NCBI GenBank assembly: GCA_964460325.1
Contig: CAYWPI010000001.1
Location: forward strand, 108,551-162,320
Direction of reading: 5' to 3'
Length of the DNA stretch: 53,770 bases
Origin: an uncultured Candidatus Saccharibacteria bacterium
GTDB taxonomy: Bacteria; Patescibacteriota; Minisyncoccia; UBA6257; 1-14-0-10-44-23
Shown here: positions 36,580 to 53,770 of the stretch, in pieces
How the letters are laid out: each line of letters opens with the position of its first letter
Numbering within the stretch: the first letter of the stretch is position 1
Made by a program: the position numbers and the translations under genes
Notes under the pieces: generated by a model
What the model was told of the DNA's origin: nothing
The model's input: only the letters and a program-made list of their open reading frames with translations
Database searches by the model: none

Positions 36580-37716
36580 TTACCCTGCGGTTTTGATGAT
36601 ACCACCGCCGAGCATACGCCCCTGAGCATCATAGAAAACGGCTGATTGGCCCGGAGCAACAAATTTCTGCTTTTGCGCAAAGCGCAGTATACAAGCGGAA
36701 GCGGACTTTGAAGAACGCACCCGCCCGCTGGCAGACAGGGACTGGCGCGGACGGACGAAAGATAATGTCGCCCTGCATAACGGCTGACGATATCGGACGC
36801 GGGCGTATACGGAAATTCCTGATTTTACTTTTTTGCTTTCCAATGACGAATCAATAAAGTTAACATCACTTAAGCTCACCTTACTTTGGTAAAGTGAGCT
36901 GTCTCCCTCTGGAGCGAGGGTAATGGTATTGTTCTTAATATTTTTATCGGCAACATACAGCGGCACCGGACTGCCACCAACACCCAAACCTCGCCGCTGT
37001 CCAATGGTGTAATAATAAGCGCCCTGATGCTCCCCCACCTTTTCTCCAGCGCTATTGACGATTACTCCTTTACGACGCGGGATAAAATCGCTCAAAAATT
37101 CCGGCAAGCTGACTTGCCCCAAAAAGCAAATTCCTTGTGAATCTTTTTTCTCCGCGTTGGGAAGCTTGTATTTTTTCGCCAAACGACGCACCTCTGTTTT
37201 TTTAATGAGATCGCCAAGCGGAAATAAGCAGTGCGCAAGTTGTTTTTGCGTTAACGTCCACAGAAAGTATGATTGATCTTTGTCCTTATCCTTCGCAGTA
37301 TACAGAGCAAAACTTTTAACTTTTAACTTTCCATTTTTAACTGCGCGTAATCGCACATAATGCCCGGTGGCGACATAATCGGCGCCAAGTTCCATCGCCC
37401 GCTCATAAAATAGACCGAACTTTATTTCTTGATTACACATGACATCGGGATTGGGCGTAATGCCCTTTTGATAGCCATCAACCATATACTGCACCACTCG
37501 GTCGCGATACTCCTTTTCAAAATCAAATACATAGAAAGGAATCCCAAGCGTTTCAGCCGCCCGGCGGGCATCCTCCGCATCTTGCGCGGCACAACCGTCG
37601 ATGTTCCAACACTTGAGGTGTACGCCGACAACGTTAAAACCCCGCTCTTTCAACAGAGCGGCAGCAACGCTGGAATCGACACCTCCCGACATGCCCACAA
37701 ATACTGTTTTTTTCAT
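36580..37716 (-). CDS. mnmA: tRNA 2-thiouridine(34) synthase
   Basis: VFVGMSGGVDSS PP-loop and an MnmA-like core. I placed the start at MKKTVF. Confidence 0.88.
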   Translation of the reverse strand: MKKTVFVGMSGGVDSSVAAALLKERGFNVVGVHLKCWNIDGCAAQDAEDARRAAETLGIPFYVFDFEKEYRDRVVQYMVDGYQKGITPNPDVMCNQEIKFGLFYERAMELGADYVATGHYVRLRAVKNGKLKVKSFALYTAKDKDKDQSYFLWTLTQKQLAHCLFPLGDLIKKTEVRRLAKKYKLPNAEKKDSQGICFLGQVSLPEFLSDFIPRRKGVIVNSAGEKVGEHQGAYYYTIGQRRGLGVGGSPVPLYVADKNIKNNTITLAPEGDSSLYQSKVSLSDVNFIDSSLESKKVKSGISVYARVRYRQPLCRATLSFVRPRQSLSASGRVRSSKSASACILRFAQKQKFVAPGQSAVFYDAQGRMLGGGIIKTAG

Positions 37717-37731
37717 ACCTCTCAATATTAC

Positions 37732-39636: not shown

Positions 39637-39744
39637 ATCATTGATTATAGATGACAGATTATAGATTACAAAGTTGACTTTTGAGCTTATTTTCGTTATC
39701 CTGCTCCCATCTATAATATATAATTTGAAATCGGTAATCTCATT

Positions 39745-40320: not shown

Positions 40321-40427
40321 CAGAAAGTGAGTAGTAGGCAGTATGTAGAAGGTAGTAGAGATACAGAAAGGAATCCTTTGCCTGTTTTGAATCTACTACG
40401 ACCAACTATATACTATCTTCTTCGCTT

Positions 40428-42497
40428 CTATCTTTCCCCCTCCAGCTTCTCCAGCTCCCAGATTTCCTGCCCCACCTTGCCCTCAATCACCTCCAGGTCT
40501 TGCATAATCTGCTGTTCGCGACGCTGTTCCTCTGTTGAAAGCTTGCGTTCCATTTTAATTTTTTTAATGAGCGCAAACTCCATTTCCATGTCATGACGCA
40601 ACAGAGCAAACCCACGACGGATAGACTCTTCTCCTTTACGCACCTCCTCCAAAAACTTACGATGCTCCCGTTTAATAACGCTCCAGTGGCGAATCACTAA
40701 AAATCCAAGCGTAAACACAATCGCCACCAAAACGCCAATAATGAGCAAATAGGCTAACTCATAACTGACACGGGCTGGTCCAAGCTTAAGCGCACCTGTG
40801 CGCACAACCATAGTCAGCTGCGAACTGGGCGGACTCATGGTCTCGCCTATTCTGCTCTGCGACCAAAGCACATAATTTCCCTTTGTAAGCGCCGCGGGGT
40901 GGTGATAAAACCACTCACCACTTTCATTCGAAACCGTTGCCGCCGAAAGCGTTTCACCAGTGGTAAGATTACTCCAATACACCACCACATCGGTTTGCGG
41001 CGTCACCGTTTCTCCACCCACATAAAACGTTTCCTCGGTGGTGAGATCGCGTGAAATTGTTGTTACGTGAGGCGGAGTCAACACCGATGTTGTGGTATTT
41101 GATTCATGAGCGGTCTGCGCCACTGTCACACTGCCGCCAATTCCCAACGAAAGAACAAAAAGCACAATGACGGCTATTTTGCCGTATTTTTTGCGATATA
41201 CTTTAAGCTCCTCAAGCTGCTTGCGAACCGTCTCGGGGACATTATTCTTCCGCTCATGCAAGCCAAGTCGCTTTGGCCAATGTTTAAGCCGCCAACCGGC
41301 AAATCCGAAAAAGAGCAACACAAGAAGTGCGACAAGCCAAAACCACATCCAGCTTATGGTAAACGCGCTGGTTATCCGCAACCCCTCGTTTTGCACTATC
41401 CCCAACAATGGACTCACAATCGCAAGTCGCCTGGTTACTTCACGATAGTTATATGCTTTATCATATGCCCGCAAAAGAACATCATAACTGCCCGGCTCAA
41501 GCGGGAAAAGGATATGCGGGCTTTGCACATCACTGAATAATTCTAAATCAGCTTCAGCTTCTGTAGTTCGCTGGGCAAGCGATATAACCTTCATCTCATA
41601 GTGATCAATGCCCGACTGCGCGTCAGTAGTAAAAAACTTTAGGACGGGCTGATCAACCGAGGTGCGCGCCGAAGGCAGAACTTCTATCTCAAACTCGGCG
41701 GGCGGTGTTTTATCTATATTAATTTGAAAATGAGTAACGCCGCCCCATACGCCATCTTGCAGGGAACGCACATGAAAGAAATACGTGCCGCTTTCAAGTT
41801 GAGTATAGGAAATTGTAGTTTGGGACCCTTCAGAAATGGTATCCGGCTTGAACAATGCGTCGTTATTCAAAATAAAACTATACCCTTCCGCGCCGGGCTC
41901 TCCAACCCATTCAATAACAGCATCCGTGTTTGAAAACCAGCGGGACTGATCGGGGTGCGTTGGCGAACTCACCGCCGGCCCAGCTGCTCTGGGCAACGTG
42001 GCGGCATATATCGCACCAGGAGTCCGCACAAGCACGTTCGTGCCCTGCCCATCGTTTGCTAACACTTTCGTGTCTGGCGTAAATTGCAAGAAAGAGCTCC
42101 CACTCGCTTTCACTCGAAAACGAATGGTAGTGATAAGACCGTTGGTGATGGTAATCCCTCCGGGAAAGCCACCCCGCATCTCTACCAAACCGTCTTTATT
42201 GTTAAACTTTGGCTGACCTGCCCAGATTTCAATGATAGATTTACCAGTGTTGGGCGAAACCACCTGAAGCTTATCTGCGGGGAATTCAAGCCCAAGCTCA
42301 ACGGCATTGATTTCTTGTCCCTGTGTATCTAATAAAATGGAAACATCAAATGTTTCACCAACTTCAAATGTTTGCGAGGCTGAAGAAAGAGAAAAAGTGG
42401 CAGCATGGGCAGAAGTAGGTAGTAAGTAGAGAGTAGTAAGTAGTAGGAAAGCAAAAACTAACCACCACTTTTTAATTTTTTGCATTTGGTTTTTCAT
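40428..42497 (-). CDS. Cohesin-domain polytopic membrane protein with a cytoplasmic coiled-coil tail
   Basis: 689 aa. Signal peptide ...LLLTTLYLLPTSAHAATF. Cohesin-like module (FEVGETFDVSILLDTQGQEINAVELGLEFPADKLQVV...). Ig/Fn3-like modules (THPDQSRWFSN...). Three internal TM helices. The C-terminus is charged and heptad-like. Confidence 0.62.
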   Translation of the reverse strand: MKNQMQKIKKWWLVFAFLLLTTLYLLPTSAHAATFSLSSASQTFEVGETFDVSILLDTQGQEINAVELGLEFPADKLQVVSPNTGKSIIEIWAGQPKFNNKDGLVEMRGGFPGGITITNGLITTIRFRVKASGSSFLQFTPDTKVLANDGQGTNVLVRTPGAIYAATLPRAAGPAVSSPTHPDQSRWFSNTDAVIEWVGEPGAEGYSFILNNDALFKPDTISEGSQTTISYTQLESGTYFFHVRSLQDGVWGGVTHFQINIDKTPPAEFEIEVLPSARTSVDQPVLKFFTTDAQSGIDHYEMKVISLAQRTTEAEADLELFSDVQSPHILFPLEPGSYDVLLRAYDKAYNYREVTRRLAIVSPLLGIVQNEGLRITSAFTISWMWFWLVALLVLLFFGFAGWRLKHWPKRLGLHERKNNVPETVRKQLEELKVYRKKYGKIAVIVLFVLSLGIGGSVTVAQTAHESNTTTSVLTPPHVTTISRDLTTEETFYVGGETVTPQTDVVVYWSNLTTGETLSAATVSNESGEWFYHHPAALTKGNYVLWSQSRIGETMSPPSSQLTMVVRTGALKLGPARVSYELAYLLIIGVLVAIVFTLGFLVIRHWSVIKREHRKFLEEVRKGEESIRRGFALLRHDMEMEFALIKKIKMERKLSTEEQRREQQIMQDLEVIEGKVGQEIWELEKLEGER

Positions 42498-42527
42498 ACT
42501 ACATACTACTGACTACATGCTTGGTTC

Positions 42528-43655
42528 TCACTTCTTCCCTATTATACCAGACGCCCAAACAAGCAACACAAAGAGAATTGCCATCCACACCCAGGCAGAA
42601 TAATTTTTCTGCGGACCAGGAATAAACTTTTCAATATAATTGCCCGCTTGATCATAAGCGCGCAAAGCAATAATCGAATACTCATCGGGCAGCGGTTGAG
42701 GAGAAAGAGCGGTAAACGGCTCCTCACTATCAATATGCACTTCATAATATTCAATTCCCGAAATCTGATCATCTGCCAAAAAAGTCAAAAACGACCGCCC
42801 TTCTGTTTCTGATATGCCTGCATTCTTTTTTACTTCCAGCCATACTGGATCTGAAACATCATTCATCAGTCGATAGCGCGAAACTACGTTGCTACCAACT
42901 TTTTTAACCGCAAAATACGTAATACCCTCCGGCACGTCATCTAACTTCAAATCCCCTTGCCACTGCGCCGATCCCCCTGGCCTGTCTGCAACATCATCAG
43001 GAACTTCAAGTGGATCCCTTGTTATGACATAACTATAGGAAGCCCCTGGCTCAAGCTCAAAATGAATCTGCGCCTTTGTGGCGGCATACCATTGCGTCTC
43101 GTCAGGGTGAGTCAGCGAAGTAATAGCCACATAATCTTTTGACGGCGGCAACACGCTCACCGCCGAACTCATCACATCAACGGAAACGCTCTTGCCGGTT
43201 CCATCAGCTAACAAAACTTTAACGGCCGATGGGACAAACGCAAGAGTCGCCCTACCCGGCAGCTCGCCGCGCAACGCAACGCGTGCCAATAAATGCTCTC
43301 CCGAAAGACCAGCGGGAATGCCACCAACCAATCGAAAACTTGATTTTCCTTTTATATTCGGTTGCTCAATAAAGACATCAATGGCCGAGCCAGCATTGTC
43401 AATTCCTCGTAAAGTTGCCGCCACGCCCGACAGAGATCCTTCAAGTTCAACCGCGTTAATACTTTCTCCTTCGGTATCGATGCGCACATCCACCAACGCT
43501 TCCTCACCGGGCATCAGCGAAATCTGTTGAGGGTAAAAATAGAGGGTGGCTGCTTGAGCAAAAGTAGGTAGTATGTAGAATGTAGTAAGCAGTAGCAGAT
43601 AAAATCCAAATCGCCCACTTCGCCCGATATGATTTTGTACATTCATGTGACGCAT
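42528..43655 (-). CDS. Cohesin-domain surface protein with a C-terminal TM anchor
   Basis: 375 aa. Signal peptide LLLLTTFYILPTFAQAATLYF. Cohesin-like module (ISLMPGEEALVDVRIDTEGESINAVELEGSL...). A THPDETQWY module. C-terminal TM helix. Confidence 0.62.
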   Translation of the reverse strand: MRHMNVQNHIGRSGRFGFYLLLLTTFYILPTFAQAATLYFYPQQISLMPGEEALVDVRIDTEGESINAVELEGSLSGVAATLRGIDNAGSAIDVFIEQPNIKGKSSFRLVGGIPAGLSGEHLLARVALRGELPGRATLAFVPSAVKVLLADGTGKSVSVDVMSSAVSVLPPSKDYVAITSLTHPDETQWYAATKAQIHFELEPGASYSYVITRDPLEVPDDVADRPGGSAQWQGDLKLDDVPEGITYFAVKKVGSNVVSRYRLMNDVSDPVWLEVKKNAGISETEGRSFLTFLADDQISGIEYYEVHIDSEEPFTALSPQPLPDEYSIIALRAYDQAGNYIEKFIPGPQKNYSAWVWMAILFVLLVWASGIIGKK

Positions 43656-43688
43656 ATATTTATTGTACTCCGACCTTGCTTTTTCCCC

Positions 43689-43722
43689 CTACTACGCACT
43701 ACATACTACCCTCTACCTACTT
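43689..43722. repeat. CTAC-rich intergenic element, copy 1 (CTACTACGCACTACATACTACCCTCTACCTACTT)
   Basis: Its first 28 nt are about 25/28 identical (hand alignment) to 48734-48761. It is also an inverted, imperfect copy of the signal-peptide-coding block at 43564-43597. Confidence 0.85.
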
Positions 43723-43725
43723 GCC

Positions 43726-44616
43726 TTAACTCTGCTGATACTTGACTGTCCACTCATACATCAAAATCGAAAAATCGACCAAGTTGACCGTTTGATCGCC
43801 ATTACGATCAACGCATCCGTTTGCAAGACCACTTTTGGGCAATGGCCGACCCCAGTAATACAACAAAATAGAAAGATCGGTGAGATTTATCGCGCCGTCA
43901 TTATTAAAATCGGAATTGGAACATGTGACCAGGTGCAATGCCAGATCGCTTGAAAACGGAGAAAGAATGCTTTGGGGTTCATATTGATAATTTGCTTTAT
44001 ACGAAAAATTGCCTGGATTAAACTCTTCGCGCGCCAACTTATACTCCCATCGCCCATTCGCACCCGCGACAGTCGTCAGCGGCGCGGTAAACGTATTGAT
44101 ATTATTAAAGACCCTTACCACGCTTGCCGGAAAAGCACTACCATACATAGTTAACGCTCCGCCTTCGGTGATGTGTTCATGCCCAATAGTCGGCGGGAGC
44201 GAAACCAAATCTATCTCCGCGACCGAACCTTCAGTCAACGTAAAAGAAATATTTACGGTCGGCGAAATCAAACCATAACGATCTCGGGCCCATAAACCAA
44301 AAGTTGCGCTGCCCGGATCAACCAAAAATAATCGTTCAAATCGACCAGAAGCCTCCGCCACCTCGGTGCCGATAACCGCTCCATCGCGCAAAAACGTTAC
44401 AATCGCCCCCGGATACGCAAACCCAGAAATACGCACATTGCCAACAGGCTGTGGGGCTCCCCCGCTACCACCCGACACTGGAGTCGAGGATCCGGGGATG
44501 GTAAGCATGATCGTTAAATCGGTCGCCCGGATGGAACCGATAAAAAGAATTTGAGCAAGAAGGGCAAGAAGAAGAAAAAAAGAAAAATAAATTATCCTGC
44601 TTTTTCTATATACCAT
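43726..44616 (-). CDS. Secreted Ig-like-domain protein with a C-terminal dockerin module
   Basis: 296 aa with a signal peptide and two EF-hand-like dockerin repeats, DFNNDGAINLTDLSILLYYW and DRNGDQTVNLVDFSILMYEW. Confidence 0.72.
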   Translation of the reverse strand: MVYRKSRIIYFSFFLLLALLAQILFIGSIRATDLTIMLTIPGSSTPVSGGSGGAPQPVGNVRISGFAYPGAIVTFLRDGAVIGTEVAEASGRFERLFLVDPGSATFGLWARDRYGLISPTVNISFTLTEGSVAEIDLVSLPPTIGHEHITEGGALTMYGSAFPASVVRVFNNINTFTAPLTTVAGANGRWEYKLAREEFNPGNFSYKANYQYEPQSILSPFSSDLALHLVTCSNSDFNNDGAINLTDLSILLYYWGRPLPKSGLANGCVDRNGDQTVNLVDFSILMYEWTVKYQQS

Positions 44617-47089: not shown

Positions 47090-48295
47090 TTACTTCTTTC
47101 TGCGGCGACGAGAACGCATCTTGCGATAAGTTTTGCGCGAGAAAACAACCATAATCGCAGCAAGGATGCGGCGACTAAACTGCTTAATAAAGATGGTAAT
47201 AAGAGCCACAATACCAGCGACAATCAGCATGAGCTTCCATGGCATCACCCAAAAACCAACCGTTTCAGAAATAGTCGCCCCACCTGCGAATCCTGCGCCG
47301 GCCGCACTGTTTATATCTGGATACTCTAAAATAAGGGTTGCCGTATATTTACCAAGATATGCGTTGTCTTTGAAATAATTAACTACACCCCTTAAAAATC
47401 CCCCTTCTTTTTCGTTTGTGCCCAGCGGGATATCAAGCGAACGAATGCGACCGGGTAATAAATAGCGACCAGGTAATGCGATATGCTTCACTACCTCGCC
47501 CTGCCAGTTACGAATCTCTAGTCGTCCCATTGCCTTAAAATAAAACATGCCCGTGTTGCGCACCTTGGCGACCAATGTTTTGGCGACATCCTCCAAAATG
47601 CCCGCCTCAGCAACCGGCACAATACTACCCTGCGCAGAGGTGCGTTCATCCGTGAGTCCTAGTGAAATAATCTCGGCTGCATATCCGCTTTTTAGATCAT
47701 CGACTGAAAAAAATGGTACGCGGAAAAAGAACAATAAATTCATCTCCGGCACAAAGCGCGGACCAGTGCCTTCAAAATAATGCCCAGGCAAAATAGCTTG
47801 CAAACGCATCGTCACCAAATACGTTCCCGCCGGCACGTCTTTGGGCGGCACCACGCGAAACACTAACTCTTGCTCATCGGCTGGATTGAGAATGAAATCA
47901 TAGCCTGTTGTAAGCGGTTCAAGAATGGTTCTCTTTGCATTATCCGGGTCTGGCAATTCAAGATAAAACCACTTGGTTGCATCAATCTCATCATCCTCTG
48001 CGCTGATATATTCAATATCTTCTTCGGTGTTTTCTTTTAAGTTCCATAACGAAAGCTGCAGATGCATAGGCAACGGCAATTCGTTTGAGTTATTAAATAT
48101 CACCAACCGGTCTTGATACGTAGTACCAGGTAAGATTTCCGCCTCGAAAAGGCTTTTGTTGGTAGAAAAACCCAGCCCAGCTGCGTGGGCTTGGGGAATA
48201 GGTAGTAAGTAGTATGTAGAAAGTAGTATAGAAACAAAAAATACAGTGCGTAGTAAGTAGTGGGTAGTATGTAGCAAAAGACGGAACATAATCAT
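47090..48295 (-). CDS. CscA-like surface protein, paralogous architecture to 44654-45601
   Basis: 401 aa with signal peptide ...ILLSTYYLLPIPQAHAAGL, FEAEILPGTTYQDRLVIFNNSNELP, and a C-terminal TM helix plus RSRRRRKK. Confidence 0.55.
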   Translation of the reverse strand: MIMFRLLLHTTHYLLRTVFFVSILLSTYYLLPIPQAHAAGLGFSTNKSLFEAEILPGTTYQDRLVIFNNSNELPLPMHLQLSLWNLKENTEEDIEYISAEDDEIDATKWFYLELPDPDNAKRTILEPLTTGYDFILNPADEQELVFRVVPPKDVPAGTYLVTMRLQAILPGHYFEGTGPRFVPEMNLLFFFRVPFFSVDDLKSGYAAEIISLGLTDERTSAQGSIVPVAEAGILEDVAKTLVAKVRNTGMFYFKAMGRLEIRNWQGEVVKHIALPGRYLLPGRIRSLDIPLGTNEKEGGFLRGVVNYFKDNAYLGKYTATLILEYPDINSAAGAGFAGGATISETVGFWVMPWKLMLIVAGIVALITIFIKQFSRRILAAIMVVFSRKTYRKMRSRRRRKK

Positions 48296-48666
48296 GATCT
48301 TTTTTCAAAATTCGCAATAATTTTATTCAGCATGCTCATAACTTCATGTAGGAGATTGTCAACCCGTACAAGATCGTCTTTCTCAAGAAAGCCAAGATCA
48401 GTTGATAAGATAAGTTGCGTTTCTAATTCAGAACCCGAACCATAAGCGATCCTGAGAAATTGGATCTTTTCTTTAACCGACTTACGCCTAAATCCTTCTG
48501 CAACGTTAGAAGGAATAGATATTACCGCGCGACGTATCTGACTAGTTAGCCCAAATAACTCAGCCCCTGGGAAAGCATCGGTTAATCGATACACCAAAAC
48601 AACGAGCTCACGAGATCTCTGCCACACAATCAAATCCTGATATGTTTTTATTTTTTCCTTTTCCAT
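48292..48666 (-). CDS. Four-helix-bundle protein (23S rRNA intervening-sequence protein family)
   Basis: 124 aa reading YQDLIVWQRSRELVVLVYRLT..FP..E.FGLTSQIRRAVISIPSNVAEGF.R.S.KE...FL.IAYGS..ELETQL.... It has an ATGA overlap with the downstream gene. Confidence 0.85.
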   Translation of the reverse strand: MEKEKIKTYQDLIVWQRSRELVVLVYRLTDAFPGAELFGLTSQIRRAVISIPSNVAEGFRRKSVKEKIQFLRIAYGSGSELETQLILSTDLGFLEKDDLVRVDNLLHEVMSMLNKIIANFEKRS

Positions 48667-48733
48667 ATATTTGCACCTCTACTATATTCTACTCACTGCA
48701 TACTACTCACTTTCTCCCACCCCCTTCCCGCTC

Positions 48734-48768
48734 CCTACTACTCACTACCTACTACCCTCTACATACTT
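48734..48768. repeat. CTAC-rich intergenic element, copy 2 (CTACTACTCACTACCTACTACCCTCTACATACTTC)
   Basis: It lies immediately 3' of the giant ORF's stop (48771), the same position as copy 1 relative to the dockerin gene's stop. Confidence 0.85.
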
Positions 48769-48770
48769 CT

Positions 48771-51700
48771 TTAGAATTTCGGCGCAACAATGAAACGAAT
48801 AGTCGTCTGATAATCCCCCGCCGCCTGAGCGCGATCGACTGAAACCCTATAAGTCATAGTGGTCGCCTCACCCGTTACCCGACCGGCAGATGCGGCCACC
48901 TCATCGCCCGGCGTGCTAGTTGAAAAGGCGGCAAACTCATTTGTGGTAAATTGCGTAATATCCGCGTCATCCGTGTTATATCCAAAACCACAATCACTAT
49001 TATTGATGCAATTAGTAGTCCACACGGTTGGCGAGGCGTTAGTTCCCGTCCAGTTGGCGATTGTCGTGGTCGCGCCAACACGCGTAAGCAGGTCAGTTGC
49101 ATAACCCGTAAGACTATATCCAAACTCACCATTAGTAGTAACCGTCAGCGTATTAGTCGCGCTTGCAGTAAAGGTGTTTGTGTCGCCCAGAGACAAGTCA
49201 ATGGAAAGCGGGCTGATACTAAACGACAAACTCGGGAATGCCCAACAGAAGGCGTTGTTCCCCCGGTCTACGGAGTTGGCATAACTCACACTGATATAGG
49301 TGCTAGTTGAAACACAGCCGGAATCTTTCACCGTTACATATCGCACGTCTTCAGTGCCTTGGTGATTAATAAGCCACTGAGTGCCAGATGAGTTGGAATC
49401 AATCGTGATAAGGTTGCCCGCAGTGCCGGTAAGAGTCAGTAAACCATTTACGCGAAACGCTTGCGTACTTGTGGCAAACACAAACGGCTTATTCCCGGTT
49501 TGCGAGGTAAAGTTCCAGAATGTCAGTTCACTGGAGGTGGCGCCACTGATGGTTGAGGTGGCCGTGGTATCAAAGGTCACCGTACTGCTCCCTAAGGTAA
49601 CCGTGCCGCTGCTGTTAAAGTCTTTGGCAAACGTAAGGCCAGTGGTAGACGCCGTGAGCGCGCCAGCAGAGGCGATGGCCACGTTGCCGTCAACATCGAG
49701 TGAGTAATTGGTCACGCTCAAGGTGCCGGCAGTAAGTGTCAAATCATTAGTACTGGTGGTGTTGCCTTCAAGCACAAAGGTTTCGGTACTGGTGGCAATT
49801 TGAAGGTTCCAATAGTTTTCTGCCTGCATAGTGGTGTTGCCACCGGCGTTGTTACCACTATACACAAAGGTTGAGCTTGCAGAAGCAAGATCGGCGCTTG
49901 CCGAATTGGCAACCAATTTAAACGGATCACCAGTAGTGCCCGACAGTGTCCAAGTGCGATTGCCAGCATTGAGCACAGCATTGGCGCCAGCTCCTAAGCC
50001 GCCGTTAACCGTCAACTCCCCCGCGATAGCAAGATTGCCAGTGCCTGACGTTTGAGTCGTGAAGGTATAAGTGCCTGCGGTGGAAGTGGCAACAGTAAAG
50101 ACAAGATCGTTAAACGTCCAATCCCCGCTTGTTGAGCCAAAGCCTTGCGACGAAGTGGCGGCCAGGGTGACAGTGAAGCTTGCGTTAGTGAGCGAGATAA
50201 CACCTCCTGCGCCCGTCACGTCACCGTTATACACCTGGATTGAAGAGGTGCCATTACTGTTGTTGAGTGTGCCAGCAGTCATCGTAAGGTTACCGTCAAC
50301 CGCGCTTGAATCAAGCCCAACAACCATATCCGAGCTGCTCGGCGACCAACTCCCACCGACGCCATTGAAGGTTACATTGCGGAATGCTCGACTCCCTGGG
50401 TTAATCGAAAATCCAGTCGTAGTTGCAGTGAACGTAGTCACTTGACCAGAATCCGTGGTGAATGAACCATTCGCAGCATTATGCCAGTCACCGCCAATAA
50501 AAACCCAATTGGACCCAACCTCTAATGTAGAGGTTGATGATCCCCAAACAATATCTCCCCCAGGCTCGCTTGGTAAGGCGCCATTTTCAAGAGTAAGATC
50601 CGACTGGCTACCTAAGGTGGTAAACGTATCTCCTGGCCAAATATAAAGACCCCAGTCAGCGTCTATGGAAACCAATTGGGCACCAGTACCGAAATGAAGA
50701 TCATTATCACCGCACGCAAGACCAATTGTGTAGTTACATAATTCGAGATGAGCATCTGTAAGAGGCCCGGTATTTTCATGCCGCACAATTAGATAATTCT
50801 TGTAGATATTTAGCCCAGCGAGATTCCCCGAGCTTGAAGCAAGAGTTACTACAGCTCCGGTTCCATTTCCTCCTCCGTTATTATTCATCCAAACTGTTAG
50901 AAGCGTCCCCGAGGAAACTCCAGCTACTGAAGTAAAGGTGAAGTTTCCGCTTGCGTCCGTACTCGTTGTGTATCCTGTCGTTCCATTAACTGCTAATTTT
51001 ACGCTCGAGGTTGTAGTGGTTATCCCCTGATCAGAATAAACCGTTCCAGAAACAGTAATGCCGGTAGCCGGCGTGCCATACGTTGTAATCTCGGGCACAT
51101 AAAGCGGCGTTGAAGTCGCACCATTAGCATCAACAATACGGAAGCAATAGGCAACGCCGGGATTAGTGCCTGTATCCCGAAGCGCAAACTGCCACACACC
51201 ATCAGAACCAGAAGTCAAAGCACTGCCAAGATCTGGATATCTGCCTCCCCCACGGGTGAAGTTGCCAAAGGTAGTACCGCTGGCGGAAAAGTTATTCTGT
51301 TCAACATGGGTTAAGCCCCTAAGAAGATCAGTGGTGTGCGTGGCGTCATCAAGACCGCCGTGGATGAGCGAGTCATGAGCTCGACCAGAGAGGTCGGTGA
51401 ATCGAATGACTCCTGTTGAAGTGGCCACATCAGTATACGTCTCACCAGAGTAGGCCACGTCACACGTGCCTGATTTTTCAGCCACTTGGAGCTTAAATGT
51501 TTCCGTGGAGGCGATACTGCGGGAAGCGTGGACAGTAGAACGGAGGATGAAGGGGGTGGAGGTGACTGATGGAGTGGTGGTGGCGGTATTAAGCGCCGAC
51601 GAGGTGGCGATATCAGTCTGATACGCGCGAATACTCCAATCCGAATCCGCATTATCAACAGTTGACAGATAAATAATACGCGACCCATCCGCAGCTATCC

Positions 51701-53770
51701 CATTATTTTGAGAAGCAGCGGCTGAACCATTTGAGCTTGTAGCATACACAAGACTCAAATCGGAAAGATTCCTCTTCTCCAAACGATTATTACTTGTACC
51801 CGATATCCCAACCACATACATATAAGAACCGTCAATTGCTATGTTATAAGCTTCGTCCGTAGCACCAGGATTACTGGTTGTTGAGGTGACAAGCGCCAAA
51901 TCGGATAAATTACGCTTTTCAATGCGCCAATTAACATCATCTTGCTCACCGACAACATACATATATTGGTTATCAATCGCAATCGAATACGCCCGGTCAG
52001 TAGTGCCCGGATTACTAGTTGTCGAAGCAACAGAGCTTAGATCCGACAATAATCTCTTTTCGATACGCCAATTAACATCATCTTGAAAGCCGACTACATA
52101 CATATAAGTACTGTCAATCGCTATTCCTCTCGCAACATCAGTCGTCCCAGCATTTATAGTGACACGGCTCCCAACTAAATCTAAGGTTGATTTATCACGT
52201 TTTTGAATGCTCCAATTTACTTCGCCTGCAGTGGATCCAACAGCGTAAAGATAGGTAACATCCTGAGCGAGGCTGTGAAAATACTCTAATCCACTTACAT
52301 CTTCCGTGAATGAGTCAACAAGAGCACCGTCAGATAGGTTGCGTTTTTCGATCCTAAAATCATTATTTGACGGCTGTGCCATGCCCGCAACATATATATA
52401 CGCATCATCGACAACAACAGCTCTTGCACGATCATTCCCACCAGGGTCACTTGAGGTTGACCAAATAATACTTCCATCTGAGAGCGATCTCTTTTCAAAG
52501 TACCAATTATTTTCTCCGCTTATTGCAGCAGAACCAGCAAGATACACATAACCTTGATCTATAGCCACTGTAAGTCCAAGATCTGCCACGCCAGGGTTGC
52601 TTGATGTTGAAAAGACCACACTTGGTTCACTACTCGTCGCAAACCATCGATAACCAGAAACATAAGGGCTACCCATATTGAGCGTTGGATATCTAGTGTA
52701 AGTTCCCAACTCAGTTCCATCATCTTCCACCATGCGGAAGTAGTAGTTGGAAACGGTGGTAGTGGCGATATCAAGGGAGAAGTCCCACTCCATGTCTTGG
52801 CCCACCGTTGCGGCTGTTGGGTTGGCATCTGTTGGATTATCCTCTTGATAACTCTGTTTAGCATCAGAGCTTGTGAGAAGGTTAGAAGTGATAGCCGCGT
52901 CGTCTGCGGGGGTGGTGTTGTTATAGAAGCGAATATCGCCAGTTGAGGTGGCGACGTCGGTCCAGCCATAACCGGTGTAGTAGACGGTAATTTTAATATG
53001 ATCAACTTGCAATTGAGCCGGACAACTTCCACCAGCGCATGTGCCGCTAAGCGCGACTCCAAAATCACTTGAGTTGATATCACTCGCAGTCCAGGTTAAC
53101 CCCCATAATTCCGTCGAAGAACCATACGAATCCTCACTCTCTCCTCCCCAAAATAAACTCGTTGAAGCCATCTCTGTCCCCGAAATTGATCCACCCTTTA
53201 CTATCTTTACAGAATTATCAGACGTCGCCGCACCTCCTGCCCTCTCAAAAGTCACCACGATACCGTCAATGGTCGCATCTGACGGAATACTAAATCCGAA
53301 ATTGGTTGCCTTTAAATAATTTGAAATTACCGTGCTTCCGACAGTCGCAGTTGCGTTAAGATTATCGCTCGTAGTCGCATTCCCTGGATTGGTCCATGCA
53401 ACAGTCCCTGTACTAGTATCATTCACCACCGTTGCAGTTGAAGTCGGTCCCACAGTAACGCTCGATACCGAGCTCGTTGCAAACTGGAGCTTAAAGGCCT
53501 GTGTGCTTGTTGAAAGTGTACTCCCGCCGACTGTCACGTTCATACGCAACCGAGCTTGGCCAAGAGTAGTGGTTGTATAGCTACTGTTTTCAGATGCTAA
53601 CGAGCTCCCTGGCTGAACGCCATCGGCAGCCGCATACCAACGGTACTCGTTTTGAGTGAAACTAACTGGCGGACTATAGGTCGTAATCTCGGGCACATAC
53701 AGCGGCGTTGAAGTGGCACCATCGGTGCGCACCACACGGAAACAATAACTCGCCGCCGGAGCTGCTGAAT
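48771..53770 (-). CDS. Giant secreted surface protein (>1654 aa; N-terminus beyond the window end). It contains repeated beta-sandwich modules, a ~7-blade beta-propeller, a beta-helix-like region and a WxL-like C-terminal domain.
   Basis: The frame remains open from 53735 to the window edge, and the upstream residues continue a repeated module (..CFRVVRTDGATSTPLYVPEITTY). 47-aa repeats read NWRIEKR.LSDL..V.S.TSNPG..D.A..IAID..YMYVVG. The C-terminus is ...RAQAAGDYQTTIRFIVAPKF. Confidence 0.85.
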   Translation of the reverse strand, partial: SAAPAASYCFRVVRTDGATSTPLYVPEITTYSPPVSFTQNEYRWYAAADGVQPGSSLASENSSYTTTTLGQARLRMNVTVGGSTLSTSTQAFKLQFATSSVSSVTVGPTSTATVVNDTSTGTVAWTNPGNATTSDNLNATATVGSTVISNYLKATNFGFSIPSDATIDGIVVTFERAGGAATSDNSVKIVKGGSISGTEMASTSLFWGGESEDSYGSSTELWGLTWTASDINSSDFGVALSGTCAGGSCPAQLQVDHIKITVYYTGYGWTDVATSTGDIRFYNNTTPADDAAITSNLLTSSDAKQSYQEDNPTDANPTAATVGQDMEWDFSLDIATTTVSNYYFRMVEDDGTELGTYTRYPTLNMGSPYVSGYRWFATSSEPSVVFSTSSNPGVADLGLTVAIDQGYVYLAGSAAISGENNWYFEKRSLSDGSIIWSTSSDPGGNDRARAVVVDDAYIYVAGMAQPSNNDFRIEKRNLSDGALVDSFTEDVSGLEYFHSLAQDVTYLYAVGSTAGEVNWSIQKRDKSTLDLVGSRVTINAGTTDVARGIAIDSTYMYVVGFQDDVNWRIEKRLLSDLSSVASTTSNPGTTDRAYSIAIDNQYMYVVGEQDDVNWRIEKRNLSDLALVTSTTSNPGATDEAYNIAIDGSYMYVVGISGTSNNRLEKRNLSDLSLVYATSSNGSAAASQNNGIAADGSRIIYLSTVDNADSDWSIRAYQTDIATSSALNTATTTPSVTSTPFILRSTVHASRSIASTETFKLQVAEKSGTCDVAYSGETYTDVATSTGVIRFTDLSGRAHDSLIHGGLDDATHTTDLLRGLTHVEQNNFSASGTTFGNFTRGGGRYPDLGSALTSGSDGVWQFALRDTGTNPGVAYCFRIVDANGATSTPLYVPEITTYGTPATGITVSGTVYSDQGITTTTSSVKLAVNGTTGYTTSTDASGNFTFTSVAGVSSGTLLTVWMNNNGGGNGTGAVVTLASSSGNLAGLNIYKNYLIVRHENTGPLTDAHLELCNYTIGLACGDNDLHFGTGAQLVSIDADWGLYIWPGDTFTTLGSQSDLTLENGALPSEPGGDIVWGSSTSTLEVGSNWVFIGGDWHNAANGSFTTDSGQVTTFTATTTGFSINPGSRAFRNVTFNGVGGSWSPSSSDMVVGLDSSAVDGNLTMTAGTLNNSNGTSSIQVYNGDVTGAGGVISLTNASFTVTLAATSSQGFGSTSGDWTFNDLVFTVATSTAGTYTFTTQTSGTGNLAIAGELTVNGGLGAGANAVLNAGNRTWTLSGTTGDPFKLVANSASADLASASSTFVYSGNNAGGNTTMQAENYWNLQIATSTETFVLEGNTTSTNDLTLTAGTLSVTNYSLDVDGNVAIASAGALTASTTGLTFAKDFNSSGTVTLGSSTVTFDTTATSTISGATSSELTFWNFTSQTGNKPFVFATSTQAFRVNGLLTLTGTAGNLITIDSNSSGTQWLINHQGTEDVRYVTVKDSGCVSTSTYISVSYANSVDRGNNAFCWAFPSLSFSISPLSIDLSLGDTNTFTASATNTLTVTTNGEFGYSLTGYATDLLTRVGATTTIANWTGTNASPTVWTTNCINNSDCGFGYNTDDADITQFTTNEFAAFSTSTPGDEVAASAGRVTGEATTMTYRVSVDRAQAAGDYQTTIRFIVAPKF

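Follow-up and report, generated by a model that had tools for sequence, protein, structure and literature searches.

Layout of the locus

The stretch analysed here, referred to throughout as the window, comprises 53,770 nt of contig CAYWPI010000001.1 from an uncultured Candidatus Saccharibacteria bacterium. Its minus strand carries a group of surface-protein genes with four associated stem-loops, located at the starts of a 375-aa and a 689-aa gene, around a 124-aa gene together with the start of a 401-aa gene, and 3' of the 689-aa gene. Each arm of these stem-loops is a tandem array with a period of 7 nt, of the form GUAGUNN in the leaders and NNACUAC in the coding sequences when read in the sense of the mRNA, and the arrays of the window consist of three to five imperfect units with 66-83% matches. 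An earlier reading of this DNA (the original prediction) had described inverted repeats bracketing the start codons of two cohesin genes, and had explained them either by pairing of the mRNA leader with the signal-peptide codons or by an invertible DNA segment. The inverted repeats proved real and the blocks it quoted are present to within 2 nt; the 7-nt periodicity, the link to a four-helix-bundle gene and the fourth hairpin are features that it had not described.

The 375-aa gene (42528-43655, minus strand) encodes a secreted cohesin-like protein with a C-terminal transmembrane segment. Its upstream cistron, the gene of a 296-aa dockerin-domain protein (43726-44616, minus strand), has a stop codon that abuts the left, or leader, arm of the hairpin (43689-43722, minus strand; AAGUAG GUAGAGG GUAGUAU GUAGUGC GUAGUAG), which starts 3 nt past it. 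The loop that follows (43598-43688, minus strand) measures 91 nt, in agreement with the roughly 90 nt originally estimated, and contains a purine-rich ribosome-binding region, the ATG at 43655-43653 and codons 1-19 with those of the n-region; the ATG at 43646-43644 is the start conserved among orthologues. The right arm (43562-43597, minus strand; CUUACUA CAUUCUA CAUACUA CCUACUU) lies within the coding sequence and encodes LLLLTTFYILPT, the hydrophobic core of the signal peptide. This coding block begins at 43562 rather than at 43564 as first given, whereas its inverted copy at 43689-43722 and the reverse complement of that copy had been quoted exactly. In a repeat search the arms extended over 52 nt (43562-43613 and 43671-43722) with 71% complementarity, including a core of 21 nt (43567-43587 and 43690-43710) with 86% complementarity and a perfect 10-nt core. 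The 7-nt indel previously placed between the arms is unneeded: they align in register, and a shift of 7 nt gives a second alignment, as expected of two arrays with that period.

The 689-aa gene (40428-42497, minus strand) repeats this arrangement, as had been claimed, with arms of 30 nt that are 80% complementary and 41 nt apart in the repeat search (42421-42450 and 42492-42521). Its left arm (42495-42521, minus strand; GCAU GUAGUCA GUAGUAU GUAGUAUG) starts 6 nt past the stop codon of the 375-aa gene and, in GUAGUAUG, runs into the annotated AUG; the loop (42451-42494, minus strand) holds n-region codons, and the right arm (42411-42450, minus strand), within the coding sequence, is a 7-nt array encoding LLLTTLYLLPTS. 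The proposed occlusion of the initiation region fits only in part: the AUG of this gene belongs to the left arm, but the start of the 375-aa gene lies in the 91-nt loop and not in the stem. The cohesin label holds for the 689-aa product, a secreted protein that combines a Y_Y_Y domain with a cohesin domain at its N-terminus (PF00963, E = 3e-5, just above the cut-off), whereas the 375-aa protein is connected with cohesins only via distant homologues.

Three genes do show the arrangement, as originally stated, but the third is the 401-aa secreted protein gene (47090-48295, minus strand) and not the adjacent 296-aa gene. Here the leader consists of two arrays of GUAGUNN units (48735-48769 and 48681-48712, minus strand) that start 1 nt past the stop codon of a 1654-aa protein gene (48771-53735, minus strand) and are located 5' of the 124-aa four-helix-bundle gene (48292-48666, minus strand). 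The latter occupies the loop and ends in the sequence ATGA, in which its stop codon and the ATG of the 401-aa gene overlap. Within the first 30 codons of the 401-aa gene are two coding arrays on the minus strand, at 48250-48277 (encoding LLLHTTHYLLR) and at 48202-48229 (encoding ILLSTYYLLP), for which nested pairing with the two leader arrays is predicted. Genes for a 413-aa and a 315-aa protein lie on the same strand. The fourth hairpin has GTAGTNN-type units and no open reading frame (ORF) in its loop; its arms (40331-40358 and 40391-40416) sit 3' of the 689-aa gene, between that gene and the convergent efp gene on the plus strand.

Departure from chance, predicted folding and codon use

With up to two mismatches allowed, GTAGTATGTAGT occurs 26 times against 1.6 expected, and chains of at least three GTAG at 7-nt spacing number 8 in the window against 0.03 in shuffles. 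Compared with dinucleotide shuffles, the mRNA-sense 5' regions of the 375-aa and 689-aa genes fold with z-scores of -3.68 and -2.59, respectively, and the hairpin 3' of the 689-aa gene with a z-score of -4.03; for the 591-nt region around the 124-aa gene, the predicted fold nests both leader arrays with both coding arrays. When only the arms are considered, the duplex of the 375-aa gene reaches -39.1 kcal/mol (z = -3.4) and that of the 689-aa gene a z-score of -2.4. These figures bear out the claims that the repeats exceed chance and that a leader/coding duplex is thermodynamically favoured over shuffled controls. RNAduplex applied to flanks of 136 x 144 nt of all ORFs gave a median of about -50 kcal/mol and was non-discriminating; since its energies scaled with length and GC content, it was replaced by local alignment of each leader against the reverse-complemented coding sequence (CDS).

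Codon use in the arms departs sharply from that of the rest of the genome. CTA, the rarest Leu codon, accounts for 3% of Leu codons outside the arms and for 9 of 20 within them; the corresponding values are 17% and 5 of 6 for TAC among Tyr codons, and 23% and 6 of 9 for ACT among Thr codons. As the arms use rare codons, the nucleotide sequence is imposed on the signal peptide and not the reverse. The null explanation entertained originally, a bias towards TAC and CTA codons, thus fails in the opposite direction, the arms being written in the rarest codons of the genome. A composition rich in these codons, combined with chance, would account for part of the complementarity, in that signal peptides are pyrimidine-rich and leaders purine-rich, and shuffled arms still pair at about -28 kcal/mol. 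Nevertheless, the rarity of CTA and TAC in this genome, the 8 heptamer chains and the recurrence of the arrangement elsewhere with other units lead us to count this explanation as refuted.

A scan for promoter-like and terminator-like sites between the cistrons of the window revealed no excess over chance level. No Rfam family matched at the gathering threshold or at E <= 1, and no rRNA was found in the window.

Recurrence of the arrangement in related genomes

About 13 orthologues of the 375-aa protein, with 58-68% identity, are present in Patescibacteria genome bins, with conserved gene order. There, too, the counterparts of the three window genes have leaders complementary to their signal-peptide codons, so that the arrangement is conserved in related genomes, as the original prediction required of a genuine signal, though with a different 7-nt unit in each. 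The unit is TACGAAA/TTTCGTA in all three genes of locus L006 and AATAGTGAATAG/CTATTCACTATT (AATAGTG) in L002; in L007 both GTAGCTA/ACTAGNT and AGTAGAG/TCTACTC are found, and the unit may thus differ even between genes of one genome (L007, L117). Leader/coding scores of cognate pairs exceed those of non-cognate pairs (26.1 versus 16.5 and 30.2 versus 15.9). Together with the favourable folding and the rare codons, this recurrence upholds, as far as structure is concerned, the pairing of the leader with the signal-peptide codons.

A comparison of two co-occurring strains yielded a separate observation at this cluster. Relative to L004, positions 9700-12850 of L002 form a 3.1-kb block of only 37-81% identity between flanks that are 99-100% identical; the block spans the dockerin end of a 299-aa gene, an entire 371-aa gene and the first 1.7 kb of a 684-aa gene, and its identity is lowest at the two leader/signal-peptide regions. 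It looks like a dockerin/cohesin cassette that was swapped or diversified as a unit.

The wider comparison set comprised 160 loci (1.64 Mb) taken from among the matches listed, mostly distant homologues from many Patescibacteria classes. Tandem arrays with a period of 7 numbered 96 in these loci, against 0, 5, 8, 13, 5 and 3 with periods of 5, 6, 8, 9, 10 and 11, respectively. With gene starts assigned mechanically, an inverted leader/coding score of at least 26 was reached by 6.3% of 316 genes of the family, by 1.8% of other signal-peptide genes, by 0.7% of the remaining genes and by 0.3% of shuffles. An array within the first 150 nt is present in 6% of family genes at period 7 and in none at other periods up to 9. 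The right arm lies in frame in the signal-peptide core of this one protein family in many classes, and the left arm starts at a median of 6 nt past an upstream stop codon on the same strand (within 15 nt in 16 of 25 cases), comparable spacings in the window being 1-9 nt. Array pairs in relatives include GTTATCT x4 with leader AGATAAC, CTTGTTG x3 with AACAAGA, AAATTCC with GAATATA, and a CTTTCTA x4 coding array that pairs with a 109-nt TAGAAAA leader array; another relative has five perfect TTTTCTA units. The translation of (CTTTCTA)3, LSTFYFL, is the commonest hydrophobic-core motif among the signal peptides of the family.

Two further kinds of repeat were noticed in these loci. Arrays of AATTTCC type are located 440-510 nt into genes of about 300 aa (L073 799-845, L084 4656-4693, L107 2940-2988 and L125 3195-3238). 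Non-periodic perfect palindromes (TGGATTCCCGCTTTCGCGGGAATGACAG) straddle some starts (L028 1000-1090, L034 1200-1340 and L083 4570-4690), with a common core, CCCGTTAGAAGT, in L034 and L083; they look like repetitive extragenic palindromic (REP)-type elements.

Arrays of a unit that is not a multiple of three, placed in the 5' coding sequence, call to mind a contingency locus in which slipped-strand gain or loss of one 7-nt unit would shift the frame and switch the surface protein ON or OFF, the leader array tuning expression. Several relatives do carry four or five perfect units (TTTTCTA x5, CTTTCTA x4, GTTATCT x4), the surface-protein genes lie in a hypervariable cassette, and heptamer copy number varies among strains of Coxiella (PMC4990558) and in hmw (PMC12721329). 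The window arrays, however, are imperfect enough for slippage to be rare, and slippage alone leaves the complementary leader array unexplained. In the related assemblies, which represent consensus sequences only, 27 of 27 coding arrays keep the reading frame and have the ON orientation, and no OFF-phase or inverted allele was found among them. Nor were copy-number variants found in a cluster with at least 90% identity, eight members of which are identical in N-terminus and length. We therefore regard frame switching as an unlikely account of the locus as a whole; an opa-like switch is possible in relatives with perfect units and unlikely for the arrays of the window.

The ninth member of that cluster has a wholly different signal peptide, made of two CTTTCTA arrays. 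The 5' module consisting of leader, start codon and signal peptide has been exchanged between alleles that are 94% identical in DNA (L168 1-260 versus L169 4380-4540; protein P0029 versus P0014 and P0022-P0028), and homology between L168 and L169 starts exactly where the coding heptamer array ends, at the signal-peptidase site.

Four-helix-bundle genes between inverted arrays

The 124-aa protein of the window belongs to the 23S_rRNA_IVP family (PF05635, E = 6e-37; TIGR02436) and is a homologue of Xanthomonas XCC0516 (PDB 2gsc). Proteins of this family are known from intervening sequences (IVSs) of rRNA. In the 23S rRNA IVS of Coxiella burnetii, inverted repeats form a 28-bp stem with the S23p ORF in its loop. 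Ahead of this ORF are tandem GACAGAT heptamers, two or three depending on the strain, and the RNase III cleavage site coincides with the beginning of the first of them (PMC4990558). Because a PF05635 ORF in the loop, heptamer arrays and an inverted stem all match this precedent, the element at 48202-48769 can be said to have the build of an IVS.

The association is not confined to the window. Across the 160 loci, loops between paired arrays fall into two size classes, of 2-115 nt and of 365-430 nt, and the long loops mostly hold an ORF of 113-125 aa from the 23S_rRNA_IVP/four-helix-bundle family; conversely, inverted heptamer arrays lie on either side of 9 of the 11 four-helix-bundle genes. 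Five of these nine resemble the window in that the stop codon overlaps the ATG of a secreted-protein gene that follows, whose signal-peptide core is encoded by the right arm; among the others some right arms are non-coding, for instance ahead of gatA or secF. In a small sample of plasmids from cyanobacteria (Nostoc, Geminocystis, Stanieria, Anabaena, Calothrix and Pseudanabaena) and Riemerella (L170-L177), six of eight four-helix-bundle genes are flanked by complementary sequences. Five of the six have clear 7-nt arrays (AGTCAGG, GGGAAAA, CAGAGGG, ACAGGTG/CTGTCAC x4 and GGTTYAA/CCTTGAA), and one of the eight has direct arrays instead (TAAAAGC x14 and CCAAAAG x10).

Several incidental features of these junctions were recorded. 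Two of the sampled plasmid four-helix-bundle genes lie between cas6 and cas4. At L169 3993-4376 the junction is occupied by a GIY-YIG gene flanked by duplicated dockerin-gene ends (TGGACSGGGTAGTGAAA), and at L006 4395-4985 by a GxxExxY gene (TIGR04256) with TACGAAA arrays on both sides. At L066 6572-7072, arrays 406 nt apart surround what appears to be a four-helix-bundle C-terminus that is read through in frame into the downstream secreted gene, which may represent a fusion or the loss of a stop codon.

These findings bear on the second explanation originally offered, a DNA inverton in which a recombinase flips the segment between the arms and so uncouples the start codon from its gene. The start-codon segment is indeed flanked by inverted repeats, the arms of the 375-aa gene have a perfect 10-nt core in common, and, an inverted 375-aa allele having no in-frame start codon, inversion would turn that gene OFF. 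The inverted 689-aa allele, on the other hand, keeps an in-frame ATG and an open frame and would therefore be no switch. The arms are only 71-86% complementary, and their sequence differs between genomes and sometimes between genes, a poor fit with a site-specific recombinase; the same arms flank four-helix-bundle genes, as in the RNA-processed IVSs, and all 27 related coding arrays have the ON orientation. No tyrosine or serine recombinase and no reverse transcriptase was found among 30 ORFs of at least 140 aa in positions 1-37 kb of the window, and no recombinase among the seven cluster proteins at 40.4-48.7 kb, in a scan that was confined to the window and covered neither the 1654-aa protein nor the genes at 37.7-40.3 kb nor all of the smaller ORFs. 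Taken together, imperfect genome-specific arms, no recombinase among the scanned ORFs and uniform orientation tell against the invertible switch, which we consider highly improbable.

A period that is nearly always 7, whatever the unit, could also reflect operator sites for a protein that reads repeats of 7 nt or 7 bp, such as a ribbon-helix-helix repressor, a HutP-like RNA binder or the four-helix-bundle protein itself. Omega of pSM19035 is a heptad-binding ribbon-helix-helix repressor, and HutP binds (UAGNNNN)n RNA. The window unit has UAG at 7-nt spacing, and the arrays are regularly associated with four-helix-bundle genes. Against such a reader, unit sequences change completely between close relatives and within genomes (L007, L117), the segment swapped between close relatives contains no regulator, and a protein site needs no complementarity between arms; we hold this explanation to be very doubtful. 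HutP-like recognition of (UAGNNNN)n in particular was set aside, as most units of other genomes have no UAG.

A proposed model of RNA-level control and its main rival

We interpret the repeats as the arms of a heptamer-repeat stem-loop with the build of an rRNA IVS, carried in an operon mRNA, the structural part of this conclusion being much firmer than its functional part. The hairpins of the 375-aa and 689-aa genes and the hairpin 3' of the latter are ORF-less versions of the same module. With regard to function, the analogy with processed stems inclines us, with some caution, towards control at the RNA level, in which a co-transcribed stem would act on the mRNA after transcription. Both arms would be present on one polycistronic transcript, and the mRNA would therefore fold into an imperfect stem of 30-35 bp. 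The loop of this stem would enclose the start codon together with the ribosome-binding region and the n-region; in the case of the 401-aa gene it would enclose the entire four-helix-bundle gene. Such a stem could serve as a double-stranded substrate of RNase III, like IVS stems and the hairpin in the 5'-untranslated region (5'-UTR) of Haemophilus hmw. As the upstream cistron ends 1-9 nt ahead of the stem, a ribosome reaching its stop codon might melt the base of the stem, in which case expression of the cohesin-like gene would be coupled to translation of the upstream dockerin gene. Slippage of 7-nt units together with arm-to-arm template switching may allow the module to evolve fast with its self-complementarity kept.

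A number of observations weigh against this model. Arrays are entirely missing from the L004 allele, from a close relative, and strong leader/coding complementarity is absent from most distant members of the family, which indicates that the module is dispensable. Mismatches in 44 arm pairs show no G:U excess on the sense strand (63 G:U versus 76 A:C), and a second scoring scheme likewise gave no asymmetry (21 versus 16). The mismatches thus show no sign of selection for RNA pairing in itself, and the complementarity looks as if made at the DNA level, by slippage and template switching or conversion, and not filtered through RNA. For the 401-aa gene and the 3' hairpin the arm-only z-scores are only -0.6 to -1.5, and much of the duplex energy survives shuffling, because the arms have complementary purine/pyrimidine compositions that shuffles keep. 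Within the genome of the window, duplexes between non-cognate leader and coding arms are as strong as cognate ones. Finally, if RNase III cut both arms, the start codon would be separated from the coding sequence. The idea of cognate stems within this genome was dropped, any leader arm pairing equally well with any coding arm.

The module may instead be selfish or neutral DNA. Its arrays would then have arisen by polymerase slippage, with gene conversion or template switching maintaining their complementarity, or else they would mark the ends of a mobile IVS-like cassette in which a four-helix-bundle gene is sometimes carried; the ORF-less hairpins of the 375-aa and 689-aa genes would be remnants, the right arm would be tolerated as a sequence that happens to be hydrophobic, and any effect on RNA would be incidental. 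This is the main rival because the module is dispensable and fast-evolving, and the missing G:U excess, the allele without a module, the rapid turnover of units among close relatives and the exchange of 5' modules between 94%-identical alleles all speak for it. In addition, small genes of selfish type (four-helix-bundle, GxxExxY, GIY-YIG) occupy the same junctions, four-helix-bundle genes carry arms in unrelated contexts (gatA, secF, CRISPR-cas loci, plasmids), and heptameric repeats are reported to be over-represented in bacteria, for which a mutational reason has been proposed (PMC4692102). The same reading is at odds with the consistent in-frame placement of the right arm in the signal-peptide core of one family across classes and with the abutment of the left arm on the upstream stop codon. 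Moreover, a co-transcribed stem of 30 bp at a start codon can hardly lack an effect, and no transposase or target-site duplications were seen around the window hairpins. We judge a purely selfish or neutral origin to be rather unlikely.

Beyond the preferred model of RNA-level control, the module can be viewed as a mobile and exchangeable 5' element, an mRNA counterpart of the rRNA IVS that, with or without a four-helix-bundle gene, installs itself at cistron junctions and supplies the downstream gene with a start codon and a signal peptide. It would be able to supply the latter because its 3' arm encodes a working hydrophobic core. We offer this broader proposal tentatively, as a possibility only. 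If true, PF05635 genes of Patescibacteria, Cyanobacteria and Bacteroidota would generally be carried inside heptamer-array hairpins, and the function of IVS proteins, heptamer repeats of the short tandemly repeated repetitive (STRR) type and the over-representation of heptamers would be brought together.

Other heptamer arrays and genes of the window

Two further heptamer arrays were noted in the window. A GATTATA x3.7 array (39643-39670) lies in the divergent intergenic region between efp and the gene of a 467-aa nucleotidyltransferase, a position at which relatives have another heptamer array, TTTATCG/TTTATAG (L002 14013-14050, L004 14017-14054); no clear inverted partner of this intergenic array was seen. 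An AACTTTT x4.6 array (37311-37342), which may be due to chance, is located within a 381-aa ORF (36580-37725) whose orthologues in L002 and L004 carry a tRNA_Me_trans domain. Upstream of the surface-protein operon, positions 7800-31200 are occupied by a large cluster for polysaccharide and nucleotide-sugar biosynthesis, with genes for glycosyltransferases, epimerases, C-methyltransferases, a Wzy-like protein and a flippase.

Novelty and implications

To our knowledge, the rRNA IVS and its four-helix-bundle protein have had no known function for more than 30 years, and we know of no accepted reason for the over-representation of heptameric repeats in bacteria. Previous work has described heptamer arrays adjoining start codons, heptamers in IVS stems and the hairpin of hmw. 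In the literature we found no description of heptamer stems around the starts of protein-coding genes with a 3' arm translated as the core of a signal peptide, of the recurrence of such stems in one surface-protein family across Patescibacteria, or of four-helix-bundle genes outside rRNA that are regularly bracketed by heptamer arrays in three phyla.

The locus thus presents, in a superphylum not amenable to culture, a heptamer-stem architecture in mRNA one of whose arms also encodes a signal peptide. Should the stems be sites of RNase III action or of translational coupling, they would offer a simple, sequence-agnostic way of setting the expression of dockerin and cohesin surface proteins, and a testable extra-ribosomal role for the IVS-protein family. 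Constraints at the nucleic-acid level shape the signal peptides of these genes, a point of practical relevance to gene calling and to the prediction of signal peptides in Patescibacteria.

Comparison with known systems

Invertons such as fimS, hin, the promoter switches of Bacteroides and intragenic invertons likewise place inverted repeats around a short segment needed for expression. They differ in having near-perfect conserved repeats, a dedicated recombinase and both orientations, whereas the arms in the window are imperfect and genome-specific. The Correia (nemis) elements of Neisseria are short palindromic sequences co-transcribed in 5' regions, whose hairpins are cut by RNase III and modulate expression. 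Co-transcribed hairpins in 5' regions are thus common to both systems, but Correia elements are derived from transposons, with conserved terminal inverted repeats and TA target duplications, and are neither heptameric nor coding.

In the opa genes of Neisseria, CTCTT repeats in the signal-peptide coding sequence bring about demonstrated frameshift switching. Both there and in the window, a surface protein has the hydrophobic core of its signal peptide encoded by tandem repeats whose unit length is not a multiple of three; unlike the window, opa has perfect pentamers and no complementary leader array.

The STRR sequences of cyanobacteria are intergenic heptamer repeats. Comparable arrays are TAACTGA in Beggiatoaceae, which adjoins start codons (PMC4679880), and GGGAATC in Xanthomonas and Nostoc, reported in a study that found heptameric repeats to be generally over-represented in bacteria (PMC4692102). 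Word searches of these two papers returned no mention of four-helix-bundle or S23 genes (PMC4679880, PMC4692102). Such intergenic repeats resemble those of the window in lying directly 5' of starts, sometimes as inverted pairs, and in having lineage-specific units, but they are mainly direct, non-coding arrays for which pairing with a CDS has not been reported.

A closer parallel in build is the 5'-UTR of hmw1A in H. influenzae, where an (AUCUUUC)n array is one arm of a long hairpin and processing by RNase III raises expression of the adhesin (PMC12721329). In hmw1A and hmw2A, as in the window, the gene of a surface protein is preceded by a heptamer repeat whose pairing with sequence further downstream gives a long imperfect hairpin. 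The hmw hairpin, however, is wholly contained in the 5'-UTR, whereas the 3' arm in the window is coding; its repeat arm is pyrimidine-rich and faces a non-repetitive G-rich partner, whereas both window arms are arrays; and it has at least 11 perfect, phase-varying units against three to five imperfect ones.

With the IVSs of Coxiella burnetii, known also from Leptospira and Xanthomonas, the window module shares a long stem, of about 28 bp or more, made by inverted repeats at its two ends. With the IVS of Coxiella it also shares tandem purine-rich heptamers in the 5' arm directly before the ORF of the loop. A PF05635 ORF in the loop, an optional feature of IVSs, is present at 48292-48666, and ORF-less versions occur in both cases. 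The IVS stem is a substrate of RNase III, an analogy by which cleavage of the window stems may be expected as well. Three differences stand beside these likenesses: the window copies lie between or inside protein-coding genes and not in a helix of 23S or 16S rRNA, translation of their 3' arm yields the hydrophobic core of a signal peptide, and two of the four copies enclose a start codon instead of an ORF. Since location in rRNA defines an IVS, we call the element of the window IVS-like and not an IVS.

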